This document shows, piece by piece, positions 11,755-42,200 of a stretch of 64,000 bases of DNA (positions are counted from its first letter, which is position 1; the number at the start of each line of letters is the position of its first letter). The notes beneath the pieces are model-generated. The model saw nothing but the letters and a program-made list of their open reading frames with translations. It was not told where the DNA came from and made no database searches. The position numbers and the translations under genes are program-made. Origin of the DNA: Aplysia californica (lineage: Eukaryota); the NCBI RefSeq assembly GCF_000002075.1, contig NW_004797434.1, positions 513,368 through 577,367 of the forward strand, read 5' to 3'.

Positions 11755-11864
11755 TTAAAAATTAACTGTGGACATATCCAAGGTGGTCTTGGTCTTGGTG
11801 TGGTACAAAGCCGTATCTTCTATGAGTCCAGTGTCGTAGTTTATGGGCCGACTGGTTGGGATAT
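11755..11864 (-). CDS. GSAP: GSAP last coding exon (NIPTSRPINYDTGLIEDTALYHTKTKTTLDMSTVNF*)
   Basis: tcctag acceptor and TAA at 11757-11755. Resembles the human C-terminus FVEEAALKHT. Confidence 0.92.
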
Positions 11865-17800: not shown

Positions 17801-20800
17801 ACAATCACCTGTAAAAACGGCCACTTCCCATTTCCCACTTTGTAATTCTTTCACATTATAAGGACACTGAGTAAGATCTGTACCCATCTAAGACAACCCC
17901 TTTTTCTCCTCGATTTTGGATGGTCGTCTTGGACAATTTTGACCGTAGTAAACACAATATACATGAAGAACCCATACAAGTAAAGTACAACTGAACTAAA
18001 TATAAAAAGTAATTAGTTTGACCCGTATTTACTAGATATGTTATGAACTGACCCTGAACTGCGAACACGAAGGACAGCATAGTAATTTGATCTGCTCATC
18101 TTTTTTAAGCACTGAGGCTAAAAATCAATACTTCATTTTGAAACTATATATAAACAGAACATATTTTACCGGATGAGTATTGTTTTAAACTGAATAAAGG
18201 TATATGTGACAGATTCTTAAACTTCAAACACTGTTGAACTTTGAACTTCCCAATTGAACAAATAAGTAGTCTGTTGACTTTTATAAGCCCATATGTATGG
18301 TTTGGGAAAAATTGTACGGGTACAACTGCAACTAAATTCAATAAGAGATGTCCCTGATTAGAGAAGTACAATATAAAAAGAAACGGCTCATCTGTTGTTT
18401 TGTTTGATAAAGCTTTACCTCTAAATTACAATCCAATACTGATTGGTGGTAAATAATCATATATTTCAGCATGAATGATACGTCAGTCAAAACAGCTCCC
18501 ATCATTTTTGCAAAAACGGCCACTCGTTTTAAATTCATTAAGGAGAAGAAGTGTTGAAATAGTTGTTAGTTTAAAACAACATGTTTTTATTTTCTAATTT
18601 AGTAAGAGTTGTAAGGCACTTGCAACACAAATAGGTAATTTTAGTATCGAAGATTAAAGGTGTTACTGAAGAGCAGCACACATAAAAAAGGAGAAGAGAT
18701 TAGGATGTTAGATGTTTGATAGGAAAGAAAGAAAGAAGAACGAAGAAAACAAAATGCGAAAGAGAAAGCTGATATCAAACTGAACCGTCACCATGTTAGA
18801 CAGGAGTTGACAAGGAGAAACACCATGGCTGATATGGTCAGTGTGAGCTGAAACATTTTTTTTGGTGCTCAGTAGTTTGCCCTGCACTCTCATCAAGACA
18901 ATAATAAAGAGAGGTGCAGCACCTACTTCACCACCTATATAACAATATCCATTACTTCACATGGGTTTCTTTTTAAAAAATTTACATTATTTTTTTTGTG
19001 CCATACCTACTTCACCACCTATATGACAATATCCATTACTTCAGACAGGTTTCTTTAAAGTTAAATTAAAAAACAAAATTGGTTGTTATGAAAAACCAAA
19101 TATGATCAGATTGTAACTTTACTTATCGAGATCTCAACTGCTGGTTAGTTTAGTGATTAGGAAGAATCCTTGCTTTGGGACACTTTGGCCAGACTCTTAC
19201 ATCTGGCTTGTTTGCAAATTAAGGTATTTCTCAATGTTGAAATGTGAAATAGTACAGGTTTTAACATCCCTATCAGCACTATTAGGTTATTTAAGAGGTA
19301 TCGTGGGACTTTAGAGTTAAATGTCTACCTCTGAAAGGACTGAGTCAAATAAGAAAGTCATGGAAAGTGCCGTTCCTAAAGAAATAACATCAGACTGAGC
19401 TGAGCCTCAAATCCCTGAACCCACAATCTCACAATCACCAGTCTGATAGCCTTCTTTTTTTTTTTTTGTAAGTTTTTTACGGCGCTCGCAACTGCATAAG
19501 GTCATATGAGCGCGCGGGACACACCTTATATTTTCAGTAGGTAGTAAATTTTGAATTTTGCTCGGGTGGCGGCCGAAGCCTACCCTTATCGATTTTAGAC
19601 CACCAAGGGATCTTTAACGTGCACACTTGCACACGGGCCCTCCGAGATTTTTCACCCTTGTCCGAGAAGGCTAGGTGTAGATCTTTCCTACCAGAAGATC
19701 AGGGGTGTGGCAGAAAGACAGCAGTAAGGAGGAGCCTAGGAGTAGCAGTAGAAAGGCTGCAGAAAGTCAGGAGCCCAGAGGAAGGAACAAAGGAGGTGAG
19801 GGGGTGGGGGCAGAAAGCAGACGACAGAACATTGCTGGAGAGCAGGAAAGGAGGGGACAGGAGACAATTTTAGAGAAGAAAATTTTTCGGTCGCTACCCG
19901 GATTCGAACCCGGGACCTTTGAATGAGAGGCCAACACCTTAACCTCTAGGCCACGAGAGCCCCTCTGGTAGCCTAACCACTCACAATGTTGATAACATTA
20001 TTATAAATTTGATTATAACTGGTTGAGTATAACCTATATAGTCACATGACTGAAGCTTTTTCAAGATACTACAAATTTCTTCAACCCACAGTGCCCTGTA
20101 TGTAGNNNNNNNNNNNNNNNNNNNNNNNNNNNNNNNNNNNNNNNNNNNNNNNNNNNNNNNNNNNNNNNNNNNNNNNNNNNNNNNNNNNNNNNNNNNNNNN
20201 NNNNNNNNNNNNNNNNNNNNNNNNNNNNNNNNNNNNNNNNNAGTGTGTGTATGTTTGTAAATATTAATTACAAGTCAGGCTTTAAGACTTCAATAATAAA
20301 AAAAAGGTTGCTGTGATTTGATATTGTTGTTGTTGCTATCGATCCAGCAACAGCTGAGCTCTCGCCCTTCTGTCCAATGCCATGTAGTGATAAGTGCAAG
20401 TTTGCTGCAGCTGCTGTGATGTTCCATAGAGTGTGTTGTCAATGTTAGGTCTCGGAGGGAGAAGTGTAGCTCTGATGTCATTTAGGGCTGTGCATTGTAA
20501 CAGGTGATGATCCACAGTCTCATATGTATAGTCACACAAAATTGCTATGAATTAAGGCCCCTACTTTCAAAATTTCATACACTCTTTTCCGATAATTTTC
20601 CCATCTTGTTTCTGGGGGATCTGTTGTTGATCTTCTTTATGAGAAAAAATGAATAGGTCTCTGAACAGATTGTACTTCAGAAGTAAAAGACAGGTCAGAC
20701 CTGCTCTAATGACCACCTGTCCAACACAACCACCTGAACTTGTAGCGACCACTTACGGCTTACCCCTCGCGTTTTTCCCCATGTGAAAATGACACTGTCC

Positions 20801-23800
20801 AAGAGAACCACCTGTTTAAGATGACCACTTTTCTCCCCTACAATGGGTGGTCGTCTTGGAAAAGTTTGATAATATATTGTTAGCAAAAAGAGCATTGTCC
20901 TTGTATAGCGTTGAAGTGGCAAAAAATTGATTGAAACTGTAGAAGCATTTGAAAAAAAGATCCTCTCATCAAGATAAAGCCCATAAGAATAGAAAGAAAA
21001 AAATATATGTGAGCCAAAAGTGCTATTTGCATCAAGACATTGCATGCAGACAGACTGTGAAGTACCATAGGCTAAAGCAGACCAGAACGAAAGCAGCGAA
21101 ATGCCACAACCAAAAGCAGTGCTACAAATTGTGGAACATAATAAAGTACAGTATCTCAGTGAACAAGAAATGAAAAATAGCGGTACTACACACTACACTA
21201 TATACAAATATTTATATTCCTTTTCAAAACCATAGAGCCTACTATTATGAAATGAGTGAAGAAATGAAAGCAATATCAAAACTCATATTTAGCTAAAATC
21301 CTCGGAAAAAAAAAATTCATGCTTCATCAAAATTTCTTTTAAAGTCTGACAAGACTCATAATAATATCAAAGTGATATACAATACTACAAAGAATACTGA
21401 TGTACTGAGAATTAAGACACGATTTGAAGAGCTATAAGGACTAAAAATAGAAACCCCCGACACATCGACTCACCACGCAGAAGGATCTGCGCCACCTGTT
21501 CCCGAGCTTTTCGCTGCTGTGTGATTGGATGATTCCAACGCTCAAAGCACTCCTCAGCAAAACTCTGTGATTAGACAGTGAGTGAGCATAACCAATCTCA
21601 GACAGCTATCTCAAACAAGATCAAAATTCAAAACTTGTCATACTTTCAGCACAAATATCAACTCTTCAAGCATTGAAAAAACTTAATGTTTTTAGCAAGC
21701 GTTTTACAGCACTTGCAACACAGTTAGGCCATGTAAGTACTGAAGATTAGTCACAAGAGAATAACAAACACAAAAAAAGGAAGAGAGATAAGAACGATAG
21801 ATGTTTTACAGGAAAGAATGAGCAGACCACACCAGAGCACCTGCTAACCACCCACCATTGAAAAAAGGTACTCGCTTTCTTAATAAGGAATTCATTATAA
21901 GTCACAGCAGATGTAACACAAGATGAAACAACAGATATAACACAATCAAAACTGAGTGATTGCAGAGGTGGTAGAAAACATCAGCAAAGTACAGAAAAAA
22001 AAAGCTTTTATTCTCAACAGTCTGAGAGAAAAGATCTGCACTGATGTAGAGACAATGATTTTCCATAGCAGGAGATCACTGAGCTGGAAGAGCATATAAC
22101 TGTAGTACTAGCTTGCTTCTGCTCTTTACCCTTCAAAAGAAAAACTTTGATCTTCTTTCCTCCAAAAACGGATCAGCCTCATTTGAACATGTCTCAGTAA
22201 ATTTCTGATAACAAATAGAAAAAGCATTTCCAGCTAAATTCATTACAGATCAATAACGTGCCCACTTCTTCATCAGTAACATGCACTTAAGACTTCTCCA
22301 GTTCTACGTCAAGCAGCTCAAAAAACTACATCGAACAAAATGTTGTCTTCAGTTTTTCTTACCACAATCTTATAATGGACACTGAGTCCAGAGGTCATCG
22401 TTTGTATACAAGGCCATTAAAAGCAAAAAAAAACTTACCTTTTACATAGGAAGGACAAGTGAAGAAAATTACCTTTTGTAATCTGGAGATGACCTGAAAC
22501 TTGATTTGTGGTACTTCGTCGTCTGCGTCATCGGGGAGATCTGGTGAGACCAAAAAGACATTTGTTTAGTTTTAGTAAGCAGCATCTGCAACACAATTAG
22601 GCATATATATATAGGTGCCAAAAGATTAGACGTGTTACATGAGAGTAACGAACACAAAAAAGAAGGAGGAGAGATATATAAGGATGATAGATGTTTGATA
22701 GGAAAGAAGGAGTAAACCACACCAGAGCACCTGCCAACCACCCACAGGACATTTGTATCATGCCTGAGAAGCTCACTCTACCAAATCATGGTGTTTAAAT
22801 AAGGAAAAGCACCACTAGGCCCGGCGTAACAGGACTGTTCTTCACCTAGGAGGGGAAAGGGATGACAAGGTGATGTGAATTCCTACAGCTATAGTAGTCA
22901 TAAATTCGTGGCGCAAGTTATTGTCAAATATGTCCTACACTATCGAACATAGACACTCCAGCTTTGGCACAATGATTTGTATCAGTTTGTCTTAACTCTT
23001 TAAGGACGAAACGGACACATTTGTCTAATCAGAAGCAGACCAGAGCCAATGTTTCGGCCCATTTCGAACTGCAGAACACAAATCAGAACTATAGTTTAGT
23101 AAACACCTCTTTTTGTCCCTGTACCACTTGAACTATCTAGGACGGGAGGTTGTGGTACCTACAGAAGAAGCTTAAACAATTCAATATACTTTCTCCGACC
23201 AGGAAACAATTCAATATAAAATATGTCAAGAAGGAAGGGGGCACTGAACTTGTCTTATTTCCAAAACTTCTTGGGGATTTTTCTCAGATATATACAACAT
23301 GGTCATTACAACAAACCTACAATTGTCTAAACCATAAAGAGAGTTTAATGGTCAAACTTACCATCCAGCATTTGTAGGATAAAATCTGGGGTGAGGATCA
23401 GAACATGATTGTCCACATACTGGAAGAACAGACTGAAACAGAAACAAAAACATCATGGTCAAAACATAATTGTCCAAGTCATTTTTTGTTTGTTTTAAAA
23501 AACAAAACAAAACAAAACAGTGCTTACTTAAATTAGTCTTATTACTTACATTGGTCTTGTTATGCTCAATTACAAAATTATATTAAAAAATCAGACTGAA
23601 GTTTTACATATCTAATTCAAAACAAAATTCTCCAAAGAATGATGCAAGAGTTTTTAAAATTGGATGCTAGAAACACAGATTCCACATACATATCCACACC
23701 AACTCTTCATACAAACACAAAGACAACAAAACATTTCCAACAACAACAAAAAACTCACTGAAGTTCCAAACACTTAAACCCTAGTGCAGTGAAGAAACTT

Positions 23801-26800
23801 GAGAAACCTGAGGGATAAAGAAGTTGAGAGGAAAAAAGAAATGTCTGATTTTGTTCAAATTTTTTGCACCTGTTTTTAATAAAACTTCAGAGTAGATCTA
23901 TGCACTTGAACAGTATTATTTTCTTTGATAAAAGGAATTGACCAAAAATAAATAGTACTATATCATTTCGGCAGCAACAATTAATTTAGAAATGTGAACA
24001 TTGTCCTGAAAGAGAAAATTCATTTTGACTGCTCAGTGAGAGACTCTGTTGTGAGCAAAGAGGTTATATTTAGTACTAGAGTTTGTGACAGTGATGTCAC
24101 CCACATAAACGACATAGGGGCTGCGTATGTCACCCTGGGACGCTCAACCTCAAGGGCAAGACATGCGCCCGCAGTTCAACAGACGGGTGAGTACTTCTTG
24201 AGTCTCACGTGGAGGCATCTTGACGGTCTTAGGAGGAAATCTACAAGCTTGCACTGAAATATGAGGGCAGGACGGTGTTTAATATACTAGAGGATGTGGG
24301 GAGCGGGGGCTCTGATTGCTCATGTAAAAGGGGGCACACCAGCTATGCCGATGAGGGTAAGAAGGTCCCCATGTCTGACATGAGCTACGTCATTGCTGTG
24401 ACCTCTAGTATTATATATAACCTCATTGGTTGCGAGTCACTTTTCAAAAGGGTGTATGGCAGAGCGGAGTCTTGCACAAAGCAGTCCATTAACTTTACAT
24501 GTGAGTTTTCGACTAGGATTCATAAATAGCTTTACAACATTTTACTATCAATCTTACAAGCAAGAGAGTAACAAACACAAAAAAGAAGGAAGAGAGATAG
24601 GGACAACAGATGATTGATAGGCAAGAAGGAGCAATTTACATGCAATTGTGAGTGCTGTAAAACTTTTTTTTTTTAAAACACACAAAAAAAAACAGCCTTT
24701 CAAATGCCTGTTGAGATAGTCAAGCATGTCCCAAAGGTAAAAACAATATTTTTTGATTTGGTAAACATTTTACGGCACTTGCAGTACAATTTGGTCATAT
24801 AAGTGCTGAAGATTAGAGGTGTCACACGATAGTAAAAAGCACAAAAAAGAAGGAGGAGAAAATAGGATGATACATGACTGATAGGAAAGGAAAAGTAAAC
24901 CACACAAGAGCATCCCCAACCACCCACATTGATATCTAAACTCAGGGAACCCACACGGTAGTAGAAATAGACTAACTCTATCCATACGCCCAAGGGTCAT
25001 TTTGTACCGCCGGGGTTGTATTCTTCATATTTTAGAATACTTCTAGTGCGAAGATCTCTTTGAAACTTTCAGTATTTCTCAAAAAATCATTTTGACAGAC
25101 TGCTATGCAAAGTGTACGCATCGGATTAACGAGTAAATTTCCTCTTTGTAAAGTGGTGGCACAGAGCTCCCCACGTCGTATGGATACGATAGTAAAACAC
25201 GGCGTACGGATACAGTTAAATAGATTGTCCTGACATCCAGACACTCACCTGGAGGCAAGGGGTATCCCATGTCACCGGCTGTCAGGTACAGCCTCTCGTA
25301 CAGCTGAAACAGCTCGTATTCCTCATCTGTGCCAGGATCTTGTCTGACGGGAGACGAGACACAAAACCACTAATGTATACAACACAGGAGGAAAGATTTG
25401 TTTGTTTGTTTGAATAAAGAGAAGCACATTTCTTTTTTGTTTGAAATGAAAAGGTACACACAGCTCTTTCTCGATTTCATGGAAAGAAAGGAACCAACAA
25501 AAAATAGTGGATGTTTGTTTGTTTGTTTGAGTAAAGAGAAGCACATCGACACAATAATGGTCCTTTAGTGCTGGGAAAAAGTAAGACAGACAGACAGACA
25601 GAAACAATAGAGGGAAAATAAAGAAGTAGGATCCACCAACGAAGCCCTCCAAACACCTGCAAAAAAATATTGGAGGCATAGAACCTTGATATGAACAATT
25701 AAAAGTCATCTCATTGCTCAGAGAAACTAGAATCTTTGCACTGCCCTAAGCTACCAAAATGCCTTTTTTCATTTTGGAGCCAAAATCTTTTATTTGCTAA
25801 ATCAAAAGCCTGATCAGCTACCCTCATCATTGCTTTCCTCACCGTGCACTAGCCTGATCAGCGACCCTTCTTGCATGAAAAAAAATCAAATTGAAACCAT
25901 GACTAGTTTTTGAATAAATCAGAATTAAAATTTTGGAATTACTCTATTTTAAAATGATTACGCTGGCAAAAAAAACTCTTTTTCTCGAAACTGCTCCCGA
26001 AGAAAAAAAGGTGTTTTGTCAGCTTACGGCAGTGTAGCTACGCCGGCAACTTACAGGTTGGGCAATAGTGTGTCCTCCAGCTGATGAGACAGGTTCTGAC
26101 CACGCAGACTCCAGATGAGATGGCACAGCTGTCTCGACACTTTGGCCTGAGAGCAAAGATTACAGACAGTCTAGTAGTAAGTGTTTTACGGCACTTGCAG
26201 CACAATAAGGTCATATAAGTGCCGAACATTAGAGGTATTACAAGAGAGTAACAAACACAAAAAAGAAGGAGGGGAGATAAGGATGGTAGATGTTTGACAG
26301 GAAAGAAGGAGCAAACCACACCAGAGCACCCACCAACCACCCACAGCAAAGGTTAAAGGTAAAATGATAAAGGCTATCGGTATTTTTCTTTTTAGGTAGA
26401 TAGGTGTTTTATTCAGTGTTTAAGGCCATTGGCCCACATGACATAAAACAAACACATGGCTACAGGTATAACAACCAAGAGCAGAGGTCGAAAGCAAATA
26501 TTTTTTTACAAAGGTAAAAATTCAAGCAAACAAGGGCCCAGGGTAAAGGCTATAGAAATGACAACACAAAGCCAAAGATAACCAAACTCTCTATAAAAAT
26601 ATATTTCAGAGGATTCTAAGTCTACTCCCTTTTAGTTCAGTAATAGGAGAAAGAGTTTTCATGACAGAGCACTAAGAATTATCAGGACGCTGATAAAGTC
26701 AATCTGCATAAGTGTTGTTTTTAGTTTGGTAAGAGTTTTACGGTGCTCGCAACTTCAACAGGTCATATGAGCGCCCACTTTAAAGTGTGATATCTCTGAG

Positions 26801-29800
26801 AAACAATAATCTCATCAGGTAAATTCACTCTAAGCAAAATATACAAAAGCATAAGCAGTGGCTCTACAGTTGAAAAAGTAAATTATTCATCACTAAGTGA
26901 CTCGAAAACAAATGCTGACGCATTTAATACTTTTTGACAACTTTCCTAGCTCCAGCTCTTTTTCTCTCCTACCAGTAGTCTAAGTGTTCAATCAAAATTA
27001 TCATATTGGCTTAATTAATTAGAAAAATCATATGCCCCTAGTTTTGACTTTGAAATGTAAACTCATTTCTCAAAATTGGAATATAAATTAATAAAATTTA
27101 AATTTGGCTTATGAAAATGATGATAACAACAGAAATAGCTTTAAGTGATGATGACACTTTTGACAGGATGTTTCATAAAAAAGTTAGGAAAAAACAAACA
27201 GAACCAAATCTAAAAAGCCTTCTTTGGCAGTTCACTCTTACCTGACAAAACAAAAACTCTTTTGCAACGTTCTTGGCTTTAGACCGAGATTCTTTTCTCA
27301 AGAATTTGCTCAAGTGGCTTGTGAGGTGATCTTCTGTCTTATTGAAAAATCAGTTAATAAAGATTAATAAACAGGAATACAGTGATAATTTATTATATTG
27401 AAGGGATAAAAGGAGAGATAATAGAATGAAAAAATGTATTTTTAAATATCAAATTAAAATCTAATGTCATACACTTGGAAACAAAGTAAAAAATGGATAG
27501 AAGAAGTAGAGAGCTTTGAAAAATGGTCCTCATAACATTTCAGGGTGTCAGAGGGGCACATTTTGTTTATTTACCAGAAAAAGATAGTTTTTCATTACTG
27601 TGTCTTAGATTCATCTTAACACATTCTTTTTCTTCACAACATTTTTGTTAGTCAAAGTTCATTACCAGAGTTAGGACAATAATGATAAAGGTCTGGTTAT
27701 GGTCTCTCTTCGTATAAGACCTTGACTACGCATAGATATAATCAAGCAAAAGGAGACTTTGAAGTGCGCATTTACCAAAAGAAATACATTATTCAAGGTC
27801 TACAAACCCTTTTCTCATTTACAAGAAAACTTAGCCTAAGCAGTATGTTTGCCACAACTCATCGATACTCACCATCTTTGAGAGCCTTCGTTTGAAAATC
27901 TGGGACTCCTGTGTGATCTTGGTCTGCAGGAACAGAGGGGCCTGCCCCAGCACAGCGTCGATTTTGCTCCGCCTGCCACTGGACGACTCGCTGTGGTCAC
28001 TGTCTCTCGAAGACTTCTTTCTCAGACCAGGAGGCATCTCAGTGACCCTCAAAGTGTAGACTCCGTCGAAGAAAGAATCTGGAACATGCCTTGAGTCCCA
28101 CACAGTCTGGGGAAGCAAAAACCTAATGATCCAACAGCTGTCTGTTTTTCATCTTGTAAATTGTAAGGACTTGAAAACCATCATTTACATTTCTTTTTTC
28201 CTTTGAAACTTTTAATTTAAGCAATCTTGTTCTTTTTAAACATATTTATCAAACTCCCCTCACTGTCAACACAAAAAAAAAGGATTTGGGAAAGTATAAA
28301 GACATGCAGATGTTAAATGTGGCAACAAGTATAAGCTTCTTATGCCTATACAACAAAACACAGAAATAACGGGAGGGAAAAAAATTGAAGAGACAAACTC
28401 CAGTTAGGAAATTCCTTTCCTACGCAACTTCATTCTGATATCAATAACCTGCATCATCTTACCTTTCCAAGAGCTTCTTCCATTTCGGCTTGCCGGTACT
28501 GCCTCATCAGCGAATCATGCGAGAACTTGGCAGGCATCTCTGTGTGTCTTGACCTCAGTCTCCGGATCAAGGTATCCCAAAAGTCTTCGTTTGACCGATT
28601 CTTCTGCTCTCTGCTTGGCCGTTTGTTCAGCTCAACAATTTCCAGGGATGAGTATGAGACGTGAGCCAAACGTTCCCCTGAAGGACTCTGAAGAAAAGAA
28701 ATCATATTTAAAATGAAATCTTGTCGAAACAGAGCAAAAGACATCTCTGACAAAAAACTGTAAGATTCTGATACAAATAGGTTCTCGTAATGCAAGGCAG
28801 TAGATCATGGGTTTGACTTTCAGTTGTGCTGAACAGGATGTTGTATTCATTGGAAAAGTCCTTTATTACATTCACCTCAGTCCACTTTGCTGTAAAAGAG
28901 TATTTAACAATCAGAAAGATCAAAACTAGCAAATTAACAATGATGGCATGGCACATTTAAGTTACAATCTTCAACAACAGTTCCTCAAACACAATAGATA
29001 TTATCTTTTTTTTAACAAACTCTTGAAACTGTATAAACAGCAATTGTTTGAATTATAAGTATTTTCTTACAGCCCAAAACCTTAACTTTCTCTCTGAATA
29101 CCTTCTCATACTGTCCCCGAAGAGTTTCTATGGATGTGAAGGAGAGAAGATTCAACACTTCCCTGTCCACCTGTCTTTTCATCTCCGCGAAGGTTGAGGC
29201 TGAACAACAGGAAAGAGAATAAAATCAAGTTGAGTCGGACAAATGAATCGCACTTTCTCACTCCATCTCTCACTCCCCCATCTTTCCCCCTCTCTCACAC
29301 ACCCCCCTCTCGGTCTCTGTCTCTCTCTCTCTCACTGACTCCCCCCTCTCTCCCTCCCTCTCACTCATCCTTCTTTGTCTGCGTCGTTCTCTCACACCAC
29401 CTTTTCCCTCTCTTGCACTGTTAGGGCCGAGCTGAGTCACAAACACATGAACTTTTAGACTGACAACAGCAACAAGAACAAACAAGAACAGTACATTTCA
29501 CTCACAGACTTAAAAGTTCACATTCATTTAACTTTTTATTTCCAGAAATATTTTAAACGTTCCATCACAGAAACACACAATATTACATGAGAAAAAATTC
29601 AAAAAGAAGTCGTAAAAATATGTTGCACAGCAAATTGATTTGTTTTTCTTTCACAAGGCATTACACATCCCACTGAATTCCTACCTAAAGAGGATTCGCA
29701 AGGATACCCGACATGACTGCCCGCTGGGTGATTGCCAGGAGGAAACAGTATCACACCACCTCTTCACCTGCCCTCCGCTTAGCGACCTGCGTAGTACCTA

Positions 29801-30173
29801 CCTCCCTGCCTCTCCTGATATCCTAAATACTCTATACAGCGACAAAACACAGCAGATAAAAACCTGTAAATTCTTTGCCATATTGACAGGCCGAAGGGCT
29901 AGAACTCAGATGGCCGCTGGATCGGAAAAGTAAAGTATAGTAAAGTTTCACGAGGCAAAGAAGAAAACAACAAGACGGACAGCAGTCACATTATGAGCAC
30001 CGATGGCACAAAAACAATTATAGAGGCAGTCCAAGGAGAATCTACTCACCAACTAAGTACTCTGTGAACATTGTGTTGATCTCAGCATTGGTCACATTCT
30101 CACAAAGGACTTCGAACACCTAGATGTGACACATTTGATAAAATTTATAAACTTATATACTTTACGCAAAGAA

Positions 30174-30235
<62 letters not shown>

Positions 30236-33200
30236 CGTGCGGTGCGTGCGTGCGGTGCACGCGTGCATGCAAGAGTGCGTGGAGGGACACACAAATAGTC
30301 AGAAGGTCTCAATTCTGATGATGACAATGAGCAAATAGGCTTTTATTCTTTGGAAAATTAGAAGGAATGACATGTGTCTGAGCTCAGCACCTTTCTTTAG
30401 CAAAAGCAACTATTCCCCATAAAAAGCACAACCGTGACCATTTCTTTAACTTACATCATCACCAGGGTTTTATCTCATTTTCGAACTATGCATTTTTTTA
30501 AAGACTTAATTGGGTACCCGATGGGTACTCTAGTGTGGTACGCTCCTTCTCTTCTATCAAACATTGACCATTCTCACCTCTCCTTCTGTGTAAACGATTA
30601 TGTCTGTGCAGAGATAAGGACGATAGATGTTTAACAAGAAAGAAGGAGTAGACCACACCTGAGCATCTGCCAACCACCCATCATCAAAGGTGTAAGCACT
30701 ATTTTACTGTTGCAACTTACCTTCCGGATGGCCAGAACATCTTTGCAATGTAGGATGAGGTAGTGAAGAATGGCCAGTCGTGTTTGCCAATAGGCATTCC
30801 GGAAACTCTCCAGCATGGTGTCCATGTTGACTACAAGCTTCAGCAGGCATCCGCTGCGGTAGTCATAGAGGTTCTGAGCTGTACAAAAAGAATGCACAAA
30901 ATACTTTCATTTGTTTCTGTTTTAGTAAGCAATTAACACCAATTGCAACACAATATTAGGTAATGTAAGCGCCAAAGATTAGAGGTGTTACAAGAGAGGT
31001 AAAAACACCAAAAAAAAGAGAAAAGATAAGGACGGTCGATGTTTGATAGGAGAGAAGAAGCAAACCACATCAGAGCTCCTACCAGCCACCCAATTACTTT
31101 GGTTAATACATAGCATTCCCTCAAGACTACAAAGAAGACCCCTCACTCTTAACAGACAGCCAAGTCCAACTGATTTCACAATTTCTTTTTTAATACACTT
31201 GCTTTGAGTTGAGTGATTTGACATGGCTCAATTTGGTCAGTATTGTGCACAACGGCATACACACATAAGCAGACATTTCAAGCCCCATACCCCTTTAGTG
31301 TGGAATTTTTTTAACAAGTCTTCAAGTACTGTGAGGTCAAGCAAGAGGTAAGAGCTGCACAGTTTGGGGTTGTTTTTTTTGGGGGGAGGGGTATTTTTTA
31401 AAAAGAGATCTCCGCAGCTATTTTTCTAACACAAAAACGTACTGATGTACTCAGACCCCCAAAAATGAACTTAACATGTTTTTTAACATAATGGTTGGCA
31501 GCCATGAGAGCACTTGGCCACTTTAGGACACTCAGATGTGAGCAAAACTAAAAAAGTGTTCCCGGAAATAAAGAACAAAATTGGACTCACTCGCATTCAA
31601 AATCAGCATGTGTGTTGAGACCCAAAGCCTGTTGGACTTTTGTCAGAACACTTCTTTCTATATACAGGTACAGCTGAACCAGCTCTAATGACCACCTGTT
31701 TATGACAGACACCAGAACAAAAGGCCACTTTCTACTTTCTCCCTTGTGTATTTTTTACATTGTATTGCTACTGTGTAAGACAGCCATCTATCTTGGATGG
31801 CCATTTTTCGCCTCAACAATGGATGGCTGTCTTAAAAGCTTCCACTGTATTTTTGTCTTAACCCAACAAACCCAGGAATATCGGTGTGCGGGTTATTTTC
31901 CCCTGCCCCTAATCACCGATTTATTGGTGTGTGCTTGTCTATCATAGAACAGTAGTCCGTACAAGGATAAAAAGGGGAAAAATGACGTTAAAAGGACTTG
32001 TAGGTTTGTGGTAACTATTGTAAAGGTCAAAGCAGTTCATGGAAGAGAAAACTGTTTTGAATAGTCTTTTGCGTCTTTTGCATGTAACCATGTCAGCATT
32101 TTTTGCTCAGGAAGCCAGAGGACAGGTTATTTTGGGCTCAGGAGACCAGGGTCCATTGGATTAATACTCACTAGTCGCTCCTGATTCTCGAGCAAAAGCC
32201 TGGCAAGGCAGGAGAGTCTTCATTGCTGCGCAGCTCTCCGAGAAAGCTGGGATGATGGTGAAGGACAAGGCACCCAGCAGAGGCGTTGTGGTAGACGTGG
32301 GACTCAGCAGTGGTAAAGGGCTCAATTGTAGCTCTGGGCTCAGCTCTGGGGTTGTCAGAGGCACTCTGTCAGCAGACAGGGAAGCAGAGATAGTAGACAT
32401 GGAACGGCTCATCTGAGACCTGTCTGAATCCACATCTCTCTCTTCCTTGTCAAACCTTTGGGAACGGATGTGTAGAAACAAAGTTTTATTAGATGAATAT
32501 CTTCTCATACTGTTTTGTTTTAGTAAGAGTTTTACGGCACTTGCAACACAATAAGGACATATAAGTGCCGAAGATTAGAGGTGTTACAAGAGAGTAACAA
32601 ACACAAAAAAGAAGGAGGGGAGATAAAGATGATATACTTTTTATAGGAAAGAAGGAGCAAACCACACCAGAGCACCTGCCAACCACCCACTCTCTCAAAC
32701 TGTCCCCGAAGAGTTTATATGGATGTGAAGGAGAGAAGATTCAACACTTTCCAGTCCACCTGTCTTTTCATCTCCCAAACACATGATTTACAACAGAAAC
32801 AAACACAAACAACAGCAAAAACAGAACATTTCACTCACAGAATTTGGAATTCACATTCATTTCATTTAAAACTCATACTCAACAAGCTGAATCANNNNNN
32901 NNNNNNNNNNNNNNNNNNNNNNNNNNNNNNNNNNNNNNNNNNNNNNNNNNNNNNNNNNNNNNNNNNNNNNNNNNNNNNNNNNNNNNNNNNNNNNNNNNNN
33001 NNNNNNNNNNNNNNNNNNNNNNNNNNNNNNNNNNNNNNNNNNNNNNNNNNNNNNNNNNNNNNNNNNNNNNNNNNNNNNNNNNNNNNNNNNNNNNNNNNNN
33101 NNNNNNNNNNNNNNNNNNNNNNNNNNNNNNNNNNNNNNNNNNNNNNNNNNNNNNNNNNNNNNNNNNNNNNNNNNNNNNNNNNNNNNNNNNNNNNNNNNNN

Positions 33201-36200
33201 NNNNNNNNNNNNNNNNNNNNNNNNNNNNNNNNNNNNNNNNNNNNNNNNNNNNNNNNNNNNNNNNNNNNNNNNNNNNNNNNNNNNNNNNNNNNNNNNNNNN
33301 NNNNNNNNNNNNNNNNNNNNNNNNNNNNNNNNNNNNNNNNNNNNNNNNNNNNNNNNNNNNNNNNNNNNNNNNNNNNNNNNCAACACAATGACCTCCTTTT
33401 TGGATGCTCTTATATAAGTGTATCATGAGAGACATTGGGGGGAAGAGGAGAGTAGAGTCTTAAATCAAAAGGAACAAAGCAGGGTGTGACAACTTACCAT
33501 GCAGCAAAATGTGGTGACACGGTTCAAATGCTTGTCCCACATTTAGGAGATGCACAAAGTAACCAGGCAACATAACCACTAGATAGCTGCCTGTAAGAGA
33601 AAAACAAAACAAAAACTTGACACAATTTAGATCATTTAGGAGGTGGGCTGCTTCGACCTTATTTGTCAGGACTAACTTGTGCTAAGAGGGAAACAATGTC
33701 CCATCAGAAAGACAGAAATAATCAATAAAACTTTTCCTCGGACAGGAATCATTGAGATGAGAGTACAAAAGGCCAACGGCATCAGCTACCAGCTTGCCCC
33801 ACTCCTCAAGCATCCTAATATCCCCAATGAGATCAAACCCAAGGTCATTAACTCTATCTTCATCCCCAACTTGACTTACCAACGCCAGACAGGGACCTTG
33901 ACCAAAAGTCTGATAGGTAAGATAACCACCTGCGAGATGAGACGTCTAAGGACAGCGGTCAACAAAATCAGACGGGACATGATCAGAAACAACAGGATCA
34001 GAGAAGTAAAGACATAAATCAAACTAGCATCTCCTGTGGTTGCCTGTTAACAGAAAAATACTTTGAAAACAAGAGCTTCTAATGGGGAGTAGATTGCAAC
34101 AATTTTCCTGATGGAAAAATGGGGTTTGTCCCTCGGAAACAAATCCATATTAATTGTTAATCAAAATTCTGGATTTGTTTTGCAGGCGATTAACTCTTAA
34201 TTAACTCTTTATCTTCGAGGGGGGTAAACCCACAATGCTGGTGCCCTCTTTTGGTACAACATTTTTTAATTGACATGTACGTCTCTAAAGTCGATAGTTC
34301 TTCAACAAATGAATGATATCCCAGTAAAAGAAACCTGTTTTTGGCAATTGCCGAAAAGTAATTTGACGTTGAAGTTGTCATAAAGGAATGTGCCCGAGCC
34401 CCTGCCAGCGGCTTAAATGCACAGCAGTTCGAACCGCGAGCGGCTTGCCAGAAATAAGGAATTAAAGTTCTTCAAACTTACATAGTATTGAGAATGCCAA
34501 ATACATAGAATAGCTATAACTCACAGGGTATTGAGAATACTTAATACACAGTACAGTCTTAACTTACAAGGTGAGTAGACAAAACAAATTGAGAGGCATT
34601 AATTTAATAAATAGCCTTGAGAATATCAAATACAGTCGAACCTGTTATTAGACCACCTTTCAAAGACGATCACTTGCATAAACAACCAACCAACCCCTCA
34701 ACCCTCCCCCCCCCACCCACCCACCACCCACCAACACACACAAACACACACACACACACACACACAATTTTATGCATTCTAATGACTCTGTCCATAAAGA
34801 CCAACTCCCTTAGATGACCACTTTTCTTCTATACAACGGGTGGTTGTCTTGGACAGATTTGACAGCATTTTCACCACTTTAACTCTTTAATTCCGGATGG
34901 CCACTAAAGTGGTGCTTTTGGTTCTGCATTTTAGCAAATCATCACTCAAGTGGCCTTTTGAGGGTACCGATTTCATCAACCCCAAGATCTACACCTGTTC
35001 CTGTGCTACATTTATTACCTATTTTCATCCATATCGTAATTCCCTGTCCAAATAGTTTGATTGCTCAAACAAATAAGTCCATCAATATGTGACTGAATTA
35101 TATCTATTTGTTTGTTTTAGTAGAGGTTTTACGGCGCTCGCAACTGCATAAGGTCATATGAGCGCAGGTTATATCTGTTTAAGTTAATACCCTTCGCCGC
35201 CTCAAATAGGGTGCATAAAATTGTGGAATCCCTTGCGTACTGAAAGAGTTAACTCACCCAACCATGAGAATACTAGTCTCTTCTGCATGACAATGTGCTT
35301 GGGCAGACTGGAGACACAGCCGTACAGGGTTTTGGCTGCAGTAAGAGAACATAAAACATGAACGCATCATGCAATCTTAGAACCACTCCAACCACATAAA
35401 GAACCCATAGAACTGGAGCTTATCCCTGTTTCTTGCATCTCTTAACTCTAAACAGTTCATTGTTTTTTAACCAATCTTTTTAAGGTAAAGTGAGTAGTTG
35501 TAGTACATAAAGTCCTATAAATTCCTGTCAGGGTCAATCAATAAGTGTTCTATATCAATATTAAAGTTATTGTAGGCATTTAGATTGATACAATATATTT
35601 ATGAGGGTTTCATGTCTCATTTGGATAGAGTGACAAGCTTACAGTATATCTATATATTTTAACCCTATCAGTACGTTGTGTTTTACAACAATCGTATCCA
35701 TACAACGTGGAAAACTCTGTGCCACCACTTTCCAAAGAGGAAATTTACACATTAATCCGATCCGTACACTTTGCATAGCAGTCTGTCAAAATGATTTTTT
35801 GAGAAATACTGAAAGTTTCAAAGAGATCTTCATACTAAAAGTATTCTAAAATGTGAAGAATACAACCCTGGGGGTACAAAATGACCCCAGGGCGTACGGA
35901 TAGGGTTAAAAAATGACATTTTTTTTCTAATCTTTACATATGAGGAAACCACTAGTTTTTTTTTAGTAAGAGTTTTACAATATAGAAATGTTTGCATGCA
36001 GTGTAACAAATCAGCTGACAAGGAATAGATCTTCAAAACATATTCTCTAGTCACCAACGACAAATTCCTGACATTAATGACAATAGTAGAGTCACATTGT
36101 GACAGAGTACAGGTTTTTTTGTTTTGTTTTAGTAAAGGTTTTACGCCGCTCGCAACTGCATAAGGTCATATGAGCGCCAAGGGGTGGGTGTCAACAGAGA

Positions 36201-39200
36201 AGTCTTTACAGGGAATCAGACTTACTCTGCTCACCTCTCTAGCTTCAACAGCACAAAGTCTGCTTCGACTATCAAGGCACCCCGGAAATAGCGGGTCACA
36301 AAAGAGTGACAAACATACAAAAAAAGTAGAGAAAAATGACGATAGTAAGGATTAGGACAGAAAAAGCAGCAGTTTTCTGTTGTAGTTCAGGCACAGTTAT
36401 GAGCATGACATTGTTGGATCAGCCCACTTACAATTCTACAGAGCATTAGAAAGAGAAATGTCCCCCTTTTGGGAATGGCCTAAAGACACTTCAGTCAGTG
36501 GCACCGCCCCGGGGGGTAGAGTTACAGTTTACTGTAAACCCACATGATAATGCCTATACACTGGAGTCTGCTTAAACCAAAGCTAATCCAAAAATAGCAG
36601 TAAACCAAAAGAAAATGAAATCCTACATTTTTTTCCCCTTTTATTTGTACAGCCTCTATAAACTGAAAACAAAGCTAAACTGAAAAAAATCTGTGAGTCC
36701 CACAGATTTCGAATTAAGCAGACTCTACTGTATTTCACTGAGAACGCATTGGGATTCTAGTATAAAAAATGAAGGGAGGTAGAAGGAGCAGACCATAGCA
36801 GAGCACCCACACACCAATCAACGACAACTTAAGTTCATGGTTTTTTTTCAACAAAACTCACCATGATGCACCATGCTCACGTAGTACTCAACATCCTGCA
36901 CCTCACTGGGAGTCTGCACACACAGAAATTGAAACAAATATGATAACAGTTGATATGTTTTGGATGTAAGAATCATGTATCAAGTCCGACAAACAATAAA
37001 GTCGGTAGACAAACAGACAGGCATATAAACAGAGAAACACATCAATAAAACAACAGCCATTTAATGCAGAGAAAAAGTAAAAACAGACAAAGAGAGACAA
37101 AAGACGGAGCTCAGATAAGTAAGATTTGTCTGTGGTGTCCTCCAACTTCCTGCCTTCAAATCATCTCTTTTAACAAGACAGAAGTATTGTAAGCAAAGGA
37201 ATATAATAATTTACAGAGTCTCTGTTATTGAGTCATCAAATCTAATACAAACCACTAAACCTAGCATATTCAATAAAAATCTCACTTAAAAGCGTTCACT
37301 TTTTCTTTAGTAAGCAGGACCCCAACAGAACCACATTAATCTGAAAAAACTGAACATCCCACATTGTGTAAGATTTAACAGAAATATATTCAAACCTGCT
37401 CTAGTGACCACCTGTCCAAGACAATCACCTATACAAACAACAAAGATCTCACACAGCAAGATGGTTCACTGAACCAAAAACGTGTCCATGGCCGCAAAGT
37501 ACACACTTATTCCCAAGGGGTGCCACCGTGATTTTGAGAACACTTTTTTTAATAAGCTCAAAGAGAGGAGTGAACCATCTTGTAGTGTAGGATCTTTGCA
37601 AACAACCACATCCCATCTGCCCCCCTTCCATCTTTTTTTCTTCCAATAATGAAACTGTCTGAGATGACCACTTTTTTTCCAATGGGTGGTTGTCTTGCAC
37701 AGGTTTGACTTCACCCACAGTCACATGACACACCTCTCGTTAGTTGTGTGTTAGCCTCCCTACCTGAGCACTAGCCTTGGACTTGGGCTGTGAGATGAGC
37801 TTGTGGTAGCACAAACAGAAAGTGCCGCTAGACTGCGTCAGGACTGTGACATTCAAGGTCAGCTCTGGAATTGAATACAATTTTCTCTGATCAAAACAAA
37901 AGTATACATCAGTTTGGGAAAATGATATTTTCTAAATGATTTTTAAAAAATAATCATAATTATCTTTTATCACTCTCATTAATATAATGTTTATTCAATA
38001 CATGTTCATCCAGATATGGCTCTAGACACTTCACAATATTCATTACCACAACGAAACAGGTAATTAAATAAATCATATAACAAACCTTTAAAAAACATAC
38101 AATACAAATGTAAATTCATTATATGTTCACCCACATATGGCTCTAGGCACTTAACAATATTTATTACCGAAACAAAACAGGTAATTTACTACAAAATATG
38201 TAACACACCTTACAAAAAGAATACAGTACAAATTTCCCAAGTCTACCTTCAAGATGCACAAAATAATCAGACTTCTATGAAAAAGTGGTTCTTAAAGTAA
38301 TGTAAATTTTCAATGTAATAATAAAATTTGTGACAATTCATACTGTTTTTGGTCACCATCAAATAAAACACTGTATATAATAAAGGAAAATTGATAATCA
38401 GTTTACCAGGCTCTGTATATGAAATACACAATAGAGAAGTGTTTACCAAACGCATGAACTTAGTATCTGTTCTGAATATATGGCACATTAATAATATGAA
38501 AGGTTTCAAGACAGAAGTGTACCTGGAATTCCAGGGTGCAGTGGGATATCTGCATATAAAGGCCTGTGGAATACAATGACCTTATTGACATAAATCTATG
38601 AAAGACTACACTTATAAAACACAGATGTAGGCATTATTTGAAAGTGTTTTGCACAGATACTTTCCATCATATTTCATGTAGTAAGGTAACTATCATCTCA
38701 ATCAGTGCAAACTTTAGATCAATAAAACATCTTTGTAAAATTTCATCTAACAATAATAATATGTGCACATTAATCTCTATCTTGAGTAAACTGAGAAGGA
38801 TAAACTATTTCCTAAGTGACAGAAACAAGGACAGTTTGACGATAAATATGTGTTCTAGCTTCATTTGTGAAGTTATCCTAAACTCATGCATACATATCAA
38901 TACATATAAAACAATACTTATAAAGACGTATTCAGTTCAGATTCTCAGTCAACAGAGTTCACTTACTTGTCCTTTGTTCTGATGTAGGGAAAGGGGAAAT
39001 TTATGGGAATGTCAATCTGAAAGTTAAAAGAAAAGAGAGATGGAAAAAATATATGATCAATGTGTGAGCATAATCAAACGATCAAAGTTGAGTTTAGTAA
39101 GTGTAAGGGTGAAGGTTGAAAGTTCATGAACTCTTCATATATATCCAGGAGTTTGGCAAAGATAAACCCACAGGAAACAGTGTGGACTCTTATAACAGAG

Positions 39201-42200
39201 TTCATCGCTATGTGATGATGGTTGACTGGTGAATATTAGAATAAGTCTGTGAAAAACTAATTAAATAGTAGCCCTGAAAGCCAAATCTCACTGCAGTCAT
39301 TGAACTTTGCATGGTATGAGCATTTTAAAAAAGAGAACAGAAAGCAATCACAAGTGATTAAAAAATGACAAAAGTTAAATTTTGAGATAAAACAAATGTT
39401 TGTTTGTTTGAGTAAAGAAAAGCACATCGATGCTATTATAGTCATTTAATGCTGGGAAAAAGTAAGACAGACAGACAGAAACAACAGAGGGAAAGTAAAG
39501 AAGTAAGACCTACCAGTGGCGCCCTCCAACCACCAATTAGCTAAAACTTAACTTTCCTAAAGTATTCTATAATGACAGGGAAACAGAACTGTAATAACTC
39601 ACCATATTTTCATACTGCGCCCTCCCATGGAACTGTATAGTGGACATCTTCTGGCTGATCTCTCCGTTGCCACCATTCTCCATGCGTATATTCTCAATGT
39701 AGTGCAAGCGTTGTTGCTCCACGTCCCACTGACACCAAACAAACTTGCGTACAACTTGAATTGTCTCTGGCTGGCTGCTCATCATCTGGAGGTTTAGTTT
39801 TAGTAAGGTTTAGTTTACAGTTTAGTTTTAGTAGAGGTTTTACTGCGCTCACAACTGCATAAGGTCATATGAGCGCCAGAAGATTAGAGGTGTTACAAGA
39901 GAGTAACAAACATAAAAAAGAAGAAGGGGAGATAAGGACGATAGATGTTTGATAGGAAAGAAGAAGCAAACCAGACCAGAGCACCCGCCAACCACCCACT
40001 TAGTAAGGTTTAACTGCGCTCGCAACTACATAAGGTCGTTTGAGTGCCGAGGGGCGTATGTCAACAGAGAAGTCCAAATGGGGAATCAGGCTTACTCTGC
40101 TCACCTCTCTAGCCTCAACAGCACAATGTCTGGTTCAACTATCAAGGCACCCCAAAAATAGCAGTTCACAAGAGAGTGACAAACACACAAAAGGAGAAGA
40201 GGAAAATGACGATAGTAAGGATGAGGGGAAAAAAAGCAGCAGTTCCCCCTCTGTTGTTCCGGCACAGTATGAGCATGACATTGATAAATCAGCCCATTTA
40301 CAATTCTACTGTGCATAAAAACATGTTAATATCCCCTCTTTGGGAATGGCCCAAAGACACTTCAGTCATTAGCACTGATTTGGTGGGGGGAATCATCTGG
40401 AATGAGCGACCCAAATGAGGTTGGAATGAAAGTCAAAACCGTTGTTGTTATTGCGCAATCTGTTCAACTCTAAGAAATATCATTTATCTCTTCCAGGGAA
40501 CCATCTGATGTAAGCCTGCCCAATGATCAAGGCACTCAGAAAGAAATATTGGCCCAACCCTAGGCAGAGAGACCCAAACTCTTTGGGGGCCTGGAGGACC
40601 TGCAGCAAACAGCAACCTTTGCACTAGCACTAGCAAATTGGAGGAGGAGGAGGAGGAGGAGGAGGAGGAGGAGAAGAAGAAGACACCTCTTCATTCTTTG
40701 ATTTCAAATTTTTCATCACAATGGATAAGTTTGTTTAATTTAGTTTGAGTACAAAGAGACACATCAATAAAACAACGACCATACAGAGCAGAGAAAAAGT
40801 AAGACAGACAAACAGAGACAAAAGAAGGAGCTCAGATTAGTAAGACCTATCTATGGTGTCCTCCAACTACCTGCCCACAACTGACCTCCTCTAACAAGAC
40901 AGAAGTATTTTGAGCAAAAGGAAGGTAATAATTTAATAAGAAATTCAACTGAAATTTCTGCAGTGACAGTTAACAAAGTCATTATGAACACAAATACTGA
41001 ACAAATTAAAATGCGCATTTGTGTTTACTGTAAAAAAAAAAAGCGCCTTGTTCAAAACGTTGACTGCATGCATAACAGATGAAATGTAAAATATTTTTAA
41101 TCTTTAAAAATGAGAGTGGAAAGAGAGAGAGCAAAAGATGTATCTCTTAACATACTTCATAAAAAAAGAAAAAGGAAAAAACAAAAAAAACAAATGGCAT
41201 GTTCACATACGAACGAGTCATTGAAGCACCTGTTTTTGGAGGTGTCCTGTTCTGCATCAGCTTATTATCAAAAATATAACCAACAAGCAAGTTCCTGTCT
41301 CTTTAAAGAGTCCTTTTATTTAACACATTTTCATTGAAGATCAGACTTTCATGAAGCTCTTTCCATTCCAGATTTAAACAGATAATTATAATTATTTATA
41401 TAAAAGCGTGTACAAGAAGATGTAGATATTTTTAGAGAACCAAATAACAATACAACTACAAACATACACACTTACAATCCCTCTGTCACCTATTCGTGCC
41501 ATTGGAACTTTGTACAAGCCAATTGCTGAGAAAGAGAAGAACAGTACATTTTAAAAACACATGATATACTTATACACATCATGTCTGCACATAATACACA
41601 AAGTAAAATTATTAAAATTTCCAGTTCAATAAGATTTCAGAATTACACATTGGCTTGAACCATTTTAAAATATTCTGAGCAAACAATTCATATTGTACGC
41701 ATACAAAGTCTTGTACAACATAAACAATTTTTCTCTACTCTGCCTTATAATCACCAATGAAACCAAGATAAAGACAGGCGTTCCCCCTCCCCCACTATTT
41801 CTTCCTTTCTTTCTTTCTCCATCTCTCAGATACATTATAATGATAGAATAAGATAGCATTTTTAAAAGCGCAAATCCCTGCTCAACAGCAAGCTCTACGC
41901 ACTTCTCAATCTATACTATTACCCAAGCAGGCTTGAGAGCATTCTGAAACAACCTCAACTTCCTGGGAAGCATACAGTGCAAGCAGCCATTTATAGGCGC
42001 TAAAACACTAACATACCGACAAGATACATCTTCTCTCCTTTTTCCTGTTCCCTTTCTTTCTCTCTACAAGACTTCATATCCACTGCTCAGAGTAAGTCTC
42101 AGTCATGTCACTTTTCAAATGATGTATGGCAGAGTCTTTCATTAACCCTTTAAGCCCTTACCTCCTGTACCCAGGTGGCCCGTAAAACTGCCCGTATGCG

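Follow-up and report, generated by a model that had tools for sequence, protein, structure and literature searches.

A sense-biased short retroelement of Aplysia californica has its tail close to 3' splice sites in the GSAP gene and in unrelated genes

The window, a stretch of 64,000 nt from Aplysia californica (contig NW_004797434.1), contains a GSAP gene whose exon boundaries were set by matching to the database protein P0002; residues 402-422 of this protein had no match in the readable sequence. The introns sum to 39,088 nt, in agreement with the ~39 kb given in a preliminary description of this DNA, and the five exon starts that it named (22540, 26146, 30878, 32455 and 39785) are all first exon bases. 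Repeat reads dominated in three poly(A) runs, depth on the GSAP exons was near zero and lariats were not seen. A contig of one sequencing run (RNA by guess) aligned exactly to 39603-39785.

Table 1. Positions in the window of the GSAP gene and of the mobile elements within it
Feature	Position	Strand	Details
GSAP coding span, 31 mapped exons	11758..53955	-	Exact match to P0002; Pfam GSAP-16
Family-A copy, sense	17601..17761	-	Acceptor distant
Family-A copy, sense, 5'-truncated	18592..18731	-	
tRNA-headed SINE, sense	19459..19963	-	LINE tail as in family A
Family-A copy, sense	21686..21855	-	135 nt upstream of exon base 21564
Family-A copy, sense	22563..22746	-	9-bp TSD within acceptor region; anchor 32 nt upstream of 22540, AG-free between
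Family-A copy, sense	24750..24928	-	Acceptor distant
Family-A copy, sense	26166..26345	-	TSD 26152-26165 / 26345-26358, ending 5 nt upstream of exon base 26146
Family-A piece (5' half), sole antisense one in GSAP	30512..30589	+	Inverted relative to 30610-30681
Family-A copy, sense	30910..31092	-	TSD not found; anchor 44 nt upstream of 30878, two AGs between
Family-A copy, young	32511..32691	-	97% to family consensus; 11-bp TSD; anchor 65 nt upstream of 32455
Family-B element, sense	36115..36515	-	LINE tail as in family A
Family-B element	39792..40386	-	TSD spans and duplicates acceptor; tail end 6 nt upstream of exon base 39785
Family-A copy inside tail of family-B element	39813..40000	-	13-bp TSD 39800-39812 / 40000-40012
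Displaced twin of acceptor 39785	40387..40420	-	Exon start would be 40396
tRNA-headed SINE, second copy, antisense	48020-48514		

Family A is an abundant, TSD-flanked element of ~180 nt, with tailed copies roughly estimated at 70,000. Eleven of the 12 pieces within the coding span are sense to GSAP, as first described; all nine pieces with a tail are sense, the antisense piece being one of three without a tail, and blastn detected two further weak sense pieces. Five of the nine tails lie 15-65 nt upstream of an acceptor, which bears out the five acceptor-proximal copies noticed earlier, with anchors 32, 31, 44, 65 and 43 nt from 22540, 26146, 30878, 32455 and 39785, respectively (P=5e-5 for five of nine within 70 nt, a value that does not allow for the choice of window). 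The TSDs reported in the acceptor regions of 22540 and 26146 were recovered as 9 bp and 14 bp (2 mismatches). The tail sequence first read needed correction at 26146, where it is CTTACTACTAG and not CTTACTAAAAC. The young copy upstream of 32455 was inserted in a duplicated exon end that is no longer functional.

Judged by its sequence, family A is a non-autonomous non-LTR retroelement of an I-group LINE. Its tail matches the 3' ends of two LINEs, X (z 10.4) and Y (z 8.6), and has the same hairpin. It has a short tandem-repeat end and variable TSDs, which were identified in 65 of 138 full copies and mostly measure 11-12 bp. In ORF2 of the partner LINE, Pfam recognized APE, RT and RNase H at two of 20 fetched loci; the ORF1 zinc knuckle scored below the cut-off. 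The head shares only low-complexity likeness with the LINE X and Y 5' UTRs (z 3-5), and an Rfam search gave no credible match. A tRNA-derived SINE was rejected (no A or B box, no ARAGORN prediction, head unlike three tRNA heads), as were an LP-SINE, the head being unlike the LP head in the supplement of PMC4758252, and an Introner, as 0 of 135 sense heads lay within 20 nt of a donor and intron gain by a whole copy was not seen. Any placement in the Nimb clade is tentative, the only likeness being a look-alike CCCCC-hairpin 5' end. LINE and flanking-copy orientation agreed at four of five informative loci among 20, too weak an observation to be used, and copies of the families nest in one another's tails.

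Such nesting occurs at acceptor 39785. The family-A tail described there is present, but it is not the source of the motif closest to the AG, which is part of an older family-B element; the family-A copy was inserted into the tail of this element. Only six bases upstream of this acceptor, CTCCAG, are not of element origin. The displaced twin scores higher than the used site (6.7 vs 2.5), and splicing to it would cause a frame shift and stops. Because all but these six bases are element-derived, the predicted branch point falls in the element tail, which almost certainly supplies it.

Unrelated dynein, myosin, transporter and kinesin genes comprising 434 exons in 894 kb were then sampled, with 375 acceptors and 421 donors passing score filters. 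Exons were called from 335 of 379 first hits, others being dropped for a missing flank or short frame, and one tandem duplicate was counted once; DNA was obtained for 100 of 126 kinesin hits, of which 99 were called. An AMP-binding search gave 14 hits, mostly long-exon, which were excluded. Called exons are those matched by Pfam, and splice sites outside GSAP are predicted rather than RNA-derived. The sample contained 203 family-A tails, 169 sense and 34 antisense, with sense tails in the majority on 55 of 67 contigs. Sense tails within 100 nt upstream of an acceptor numbered 29 of 169 against 7.0 expected (P=1e-10), with a peak at 20-40 nt (12 vs 1.4), and the 0-20 nt zone was empty. The excess held in a comparison confined to the introns that contain the tails (19 of 56 vs 5.7 expected), in a later gene set (5 of 30 vs 1.7) and in a second replicate with the test fixed in advance (6 of 33 vs 1.7). 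A family-A tail lies within 100 nt of 27 of the 375 acceptors (44 for any I-group tail), and its anchor within 50 nt of 16. The genome-wide check proposed in the preliminary description, run here in unrelated genes, thus confirms that acceptor enrichment and sense bias are general and extend beyond GSAP.

It is highly improbable that incomplete annotation, clustered copies or gene choice created this pattern. Exon calling was restricted to Pfam matches, nested copies occur and four gene families were sampled; however, missing exons would dilute the signal, the 29 near tails represent 27 distinct acceptors on 22 contigs, the within-intron test is still positive and in GSAP the exon boundaries were set by protein matching.

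Family-A density was 0.227 per kb in genes and 0.088 in a genome sample (15 in 170 kb; P=5e-5), the latter being small and taken at round coordinates on large contigs. Antisense density in genes was close to the per-strand rate of the genome sample, while sense density was four times that rate. Removal alone is therefore insufficient to explain the bias, since density in genes exceeds that of the genome sample. The bias does not grow with age (sense:antisense 27:6, 46:10 and 39:9 by age class), copies near and far from acceptors are equally diverged (0.876 vs 0.870, P=0.69) and exon length was uncorrelated with tail-acceptor distance (rho 0.16). The effects hold after local composition is taken into account (odds 3.7, 3.5 and 7.8), which explains only 1.4-1.9 fold. 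This bears on a preference for target sequences with a T-rich strand just upstream, which T-skewed introns and their pyrimidine tracts would satisfy. T does exceed A at 12-60 nt upstream (P=2e-6, composition terms), but under such a preference the expected strand ratio is 1.4 and the expected exon-edge excess 1.7-1.9 fold, where 5, 4 and 8 were observed, and 65 rebuilt target sites contained no motif. Plain target-sequence preference is already largely refuted and very unlikely.

At donors the orientation is reversed. Antisense family-A tails just downstream of donors numbered seven against 0.9 expected, an excess resting on seven copies and noticed post hoc; P was 0.06 in the second set, the kinesins (0 of 3) were uninformative and GSAP had none. 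Near donors the sense:antisense ratio was 1:5, compared with 92:16 elsewhere (P=7e-4). Overall, 36 family-A 3' ends were directed toward exons vs 8.0 expected, and three 5' ends vs 4.8; the retro-families taken together, whose heads are unrelated, gave 60 vs 18.2 and 8 vs 12.5. Antisense tails after donors, together with heads that do not crowd exons, indicate that, on both sides of the exon, it is the 3' end that points toward it. Other I-tailed families were also sense-biased (169:41) and enriched near acceptors (17 vs 7.0), unlike L2/RTE-tailed families (27:32). Strand bias thus goes with the I-group LINE tail. Family C is 78:5 sense, although a strong acceptor sits on its sense strand. MITEs had no strand bias (41:42), and their ends accumulate at acceptors and donors alike, without polarity (20 vs 5.6 expected pooled; 11 vs 5.3 within introns). 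The labels Nin, CORE/L2, RTE and MITE are presumptive, having been assigned from features typical of such elements. One motif behind the labels was taken from a passage of PMC5786205. A 'tRNA9' model was ruled out as an independent control, being the head of a Nin-tailed SINE.

The MITE result is consistent with all mobile elements accumulating near exons, through easier insertion or protection from deletion, with polarity set by selection alone. Upstream of acceptors, selection would purge antisense copies for their many AGs; downstream of donors it would purge heads that act as decoy donors, and it would purge antisense copies generally. Family A has 24 AGs on the antisense strand vs two on the sense strand, the heads of families A and C contain donor-like sites (scores 7.1 and 9.1), and passages of PMC3088655 and PMC2533698 give a comparable selective account of sense Alus near human exons. 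However, retro-family heads, including tRNA heads, are not enriched, the age trend is absent, genes hold sense copies at four times the density seen per strand in the genome sample, and no strong splice site or AATAAA was found in antisense family A. This account is a serious one but somewhat unlikely.

The preliminary description had proposed that the element carries a replacement branch point and is hence tolerated at, or targeted to, 3' splice sites, a proposal that the results support in part. The family-A peak at 20-40 nt adjoins the native peak of branch-point-like sequence (-20 to -29), no AG separates tail and acceptor in 11 of 17 pairs spaced by up to 50 nt, and at 22540 and 39785 in GSAP the tail motif lies in the native window with no AG before the acceptor. 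Acceptor 39785, in use with element sequence upstream, and the presence of CTCAC in MITE ends near acceptors also favour a ready-made branch point as the sole reason why elements are tolerated, favoured or drawn there. Against this, conservation of TACTAA does not improve near acceptors (exact in 7 of 14 vs 51 of 123 elsewhere, a comparison of low power), and 13 of the 29 near tails, at 51-100 nt, fall beyond the usual window. Donors need no branch point, and mimicry of one does not explain the crowding on the donor side; MITE ends, too, crowd exons. Three AGs, together with a CTAAT at -34, separate the tail from acceptor 32455, and this tail is therefore probably not the branch point. As a sole cause the branch point is improbable: it would explain tolerance but not the four-fold excess over deeper intron. 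The best reading of these motifs is that the branch-point look-alike is permissive and not the driver.

Intron ends are known as zones purged of mobile elements. In the passages of PMC3088655 and PMC2533698, human Alus are sense-biased near exons and introns have zones of under-representation. Alu and family A are alike in favouring sense near splice sites and sparing the last 20 nt of the intron. However, mammalian elements are depleted near exons whereas family-A tails are enriched four- to nine-fold, and Alu bias is ascribed to antisense purging whereas in family A the polarity is reversed at donors. Nimb-tailed (I-superfamily) SINEs of molluscs, among them LP-SINEs and Meta/V SINEs, share with family A the I-group LINE tail, TSDs and an ACTAAA hexamer before short tandem repeats, and accumulate in genic regions (for two bivalves, also in introns); tRNA and LP heads are both absent from family A, and the passages of PMC4758252 and PMC11481361 on these SINEs contain no strand or splice-site analysis. 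Single human pseudoexons with branch points derived from transposable elements, described in part of PMC7951965, likewise take part of a 3' splice signal from a mobile element, but such cases are often harmful, whereas family A occurs at ordinary acceptors. The Introner (cf. PMC9860276) is similarly intron-like in sense, AG-poor and pyrimidine-rich, with a branch-point-like end and a TSD that may copy the AG; family-A copies lie within existing introns, with no whole new intron in the sample.

With confidence evenly balanced, it is proposed that the I-group LINE machinery favours gene bodies and exon edges, with the priming (3') end exonward, and that selection follows, branch-point mimicry being permissive. 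The excess would then arise at insertion. In target-primed reverse transcription the primer is the 3' flank, and a chromatin cue on the exon side would therefore yield copies in sense upstream of acceptors and in antisense downstream of donors. Selection would afterwards retain insertions sparing the pyrimidine tract and AG, leaving the 0-20 nt zone empty. In tails filling -20 to -40, the adenosine of CTTAC or CTAAA may serve as branch point, which would make an otherwise harmful insertion tolerable. All sampled copies are fixed survivors, new insertions having not been observed, and an exon-edge cue alone leaves the 5:1 sense bias of deep introns unexplained. A near-exon excess with selection against the head-first orientation would also fit, because MITE ends crowd exons. 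The Drosophila I-element, which shares the APE, RT and RNase H layout of the partner LINEs, counts against insertion bias in family A, its new insertions showing no strand bias and slight exon depletion in the passages of PMC10018349. More tentatively, the LINE might be tethered to transcribed exon edges, for example by exon nucleosomes or by polymerase pausing at splice sites, and prime from the exon side, its passengers being splice-neutral, AG-free and branch-point-bearing.

Intron ends are here hot spots for element tails, the opposite of mammalian avoidance. If the bias is set at insertion, it would represent a form of retroelement targeting whose polarity is toward the exon, for which no precedent was found in the literature searched. 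With one and the same tail placed at a range of distances from acceptors, this genome offers very many natural tests of what animal branch points require. If tethering is true, thousands of its introns would be spliced on branch points supplied by transposons.

The minus-strand gene was identified as GSAP from an exon matching a 1057-residue protein, source name Aplysia californica gamma-secretase-activating protein, and contains Pfam GSAP-16. Exact protein matches placed 31 exons (residues 402–422 unplaced) and returned the five acceptors named in the preliminary description. Its figures of about 39 kb of intron (total 39,088 nt) and 11 of 12 sense family-A copies were also borne out, with nine tailed copies in the coding span, all sense, plus three tail-less pieces. 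Five of the nine tails were near acceptors, at no more than 70 nt (P=5e-5, the window's own selection not yet allowed for). Past the stop codon the tailed copies were two plus and two minus, consistent with a gene-linked strand bias. Head to head with GSAP lies a histone deacetylase gene, one exon of which scored E 2e-5 in Pfam, short of the cut-off.

Coordinates of features in the window, with acceptors named by first exon base
Feature	Position	Remark
Acceptor	22540	tail CTTAC at −36
Acceptor	26146	tail CTTAC at −32
Acceptor	30878	two AGs between tail and acceptor
Acceptor	32455	CTAAT at −34; three AGs downstream of tail
Acceptor, downstream twin	39785	score 2.5
Original acceptor	40396	score 6.7
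Exact contig match	39603–39785	one contig
Dead duplicate	32693–32862 + 32455–32510	donor GT to AT
Source exon of duplicate	29102–29199	copied in part, with upstream intron; 95 % alike
Family C	25524–25657	sense
Family C	37030–37149	sense
Family C	39405–39534	sense
Family C	40743–40871	sense
Region past GSAP stop codon	4254–6757	
Histone deacetylase exon	62478–62807	plus strand

Beyond GSAP, exons came from five Pfam searches (DHC_N2 and AAA_6 of dynein, myosin head, SNF and kinesin), and DNA was fetched around them. Splice sites were predicted by matrices trained on GSAP and then iterated, and repeats were placed with profiles. In the pooled sample without GSAP (894 kb, 434 exons), family-A tails were 169 sense and 34 antisense, and 29 lay within 100 nt upstream of an acceptor (7.0 expected), spread over 27 distinct acceptors on 22 contigs. 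None fell at 0–20 nt, while 12 fell at 20–40 nt (1.4 expected). Under random placement within their own introns, 5.7 of 56 tails were expected near an acceptor and 19 were found. The first two gene sets gave 18 of 106 (3.6 expected) and 5 of 30 (1.7 expected), and the kinesins, for which the prediction was fixed beforehand, gave 6 of 33 (1.7 expected). Tail crowding at acceptors is real and general within this genome.

Family A is about 180 nt long (full length in 139 of 206 tailed copies), has TSDs of mostly 11–12 bp and numbers roughly 70,000 copies. Its sense strand is 63 % pyrimidine with two AGs, the antisense strand carrying 24. Searches of family A gave neither Pol III boxes, nor similarity to tRNA, nor a hit in Rfam. 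Two LINE families retrieved from this genome have 3′ ends that match the final 55 nt of family A, and the ORF2 of these LINEs encodes APE, RT and RNase H domains, the layout of the I group. Families B and C carry related tails, as do a tRNA SINE and a Nin-type SINE. Family C, a 130-nt relative, is sense in 78 of 83 copies outside GSAP, and its sense strand has donor-like and acceptor-like sites about 60 nt apart. Two young I-group LINE families (loci L263, L267, L268) are 97–99 % alike within subgroups, and the two families are about 66 % alike; their first 38 nt are identical, and their ORF2s are open, at about 1180–1226 residues. Copies also form same-strand clusters, inserted in one another's tails (L267, L269, C479; myosin introns, L142), including 10 copies around one LINE and arrays ahead of three acceptors of a single myosin gene.

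The five GSAP sites are not alike. A TSD inside the acceptor region was confirmed at 22540 and 26146. At 32455, the dead exon-end duplicate has been split by a young family-A copy and forms the 3′ end of the preceding intron; the tail there is probably not the branch point used, given the nearer CTAAT and the AGs. The strongest case is 39785, where a family-B insertion has a TSD spanning the acceptor and a later family-A copy sits inside the family-B tail, leaving six non-element bases before the exon. Splicing at the original acceptor would yield a 794-nt exon with stops, and the protein match and the aligned contig, from a run assumed by guess to be RNA, indicate that the downstream twin is used. 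We infer that an element must supply its branch point.

Antisense tails were in excess within 60 nt after donors (7 of 34, 0.9 expected), and their TSDs can take in the donor. This result is less secure than the acceptor side, because it was spotted post hoc and the sets gave 5/20, 2/11 (P 0.06) and, for kinesins, 0/3. Family-A heads were not enriched at acceptors or donors (3, 4.8 expected). The trend recurs in the other I-tailed families, with strands of 169:41 sense to antisense, 20 exon-facing 3′ ends (8.2 expected) and 3 heads (5.0 expected). L2/RTE-tailed elements (27:32) and MITEs (41:42) were near parity. MITE ends were enriched at exons (20, 5.6 expected, pooled; 11, 5.3 expected, within introns), and a near-exon excess of elements may be general across this genome. 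DNA-transposon-like MITE ends (L121–L346) crowd both splice sites and end in the branch-point-like word CTCAC.

In favour of selection are the MITE excess, which shows a general pull toward exon edges, the decoy donors in head sequences, the fact that all copies observed are survivors, and the lack of strand bias among new Drosophila I-element insertions (PMC10018349). Other results count against removal by selection as the sole cause. Tails are denser in genes than in a genome sample of twenty 10-kb stretches at round coordinates (0.227 versus 0.088 per kb), and antisense tails in genes match that sample's density per strand. The sense to antisense ratio is unchanged between young and old copies, neither a strong splice site nor an AATAAA is present on the antisense strand of family A, and family C is sense-biased (78:5) despite a strong acceptor on its sense strand. 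Insertion sites do have a T-rich stretch upstream, but it predicts just a 1.4-fold strand bias; with it modelled, odds in 107 full copies were 3.7 for sense, 3.5 for acceptor and 7.8 for donor, and 0.86 for heads facing exons. As the mechanism of tail crowding, a bias of insertion toward exon edges combined with selection has about even odds.

Mammalian elements are depleted near exons and Alu sense bias is put down to selection (PMC3088655, PMC2533698), whereas family-A tails are enriched before acceptors. Mollusc Nimb-tailed SINEs and their accumulation in genic regions are already described, with no strand or splice-site analysis in the parts compared (PMC4758252, PMC11481361); one supplementary file of PMC4758252, outside the comparison, might already list family A. 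Single TE-supplied branch points are known (PMC7951965), and literature searches yielded no account of acceptor enrichment across a whole family.

The proposal that the tail is a replacement branch point holds in part. In 180 clean acceptors, yTnAy peaks at −20 to −29 (72 versus about 45); tails at 20–50 nt occupy this window, often AG-free to the acceptor, and so likely serve as branch points in those introns. However, the tail motif was exactly kept in 7 of 14 copies near acceptors and 51 of 123 elsewhere, hence no better conserved near them, and 13 of the 29 near-acceptor tails lie at 51–100 nt. A branch-point-like tail would let insertions survive near acceptors, rather than bring them there.
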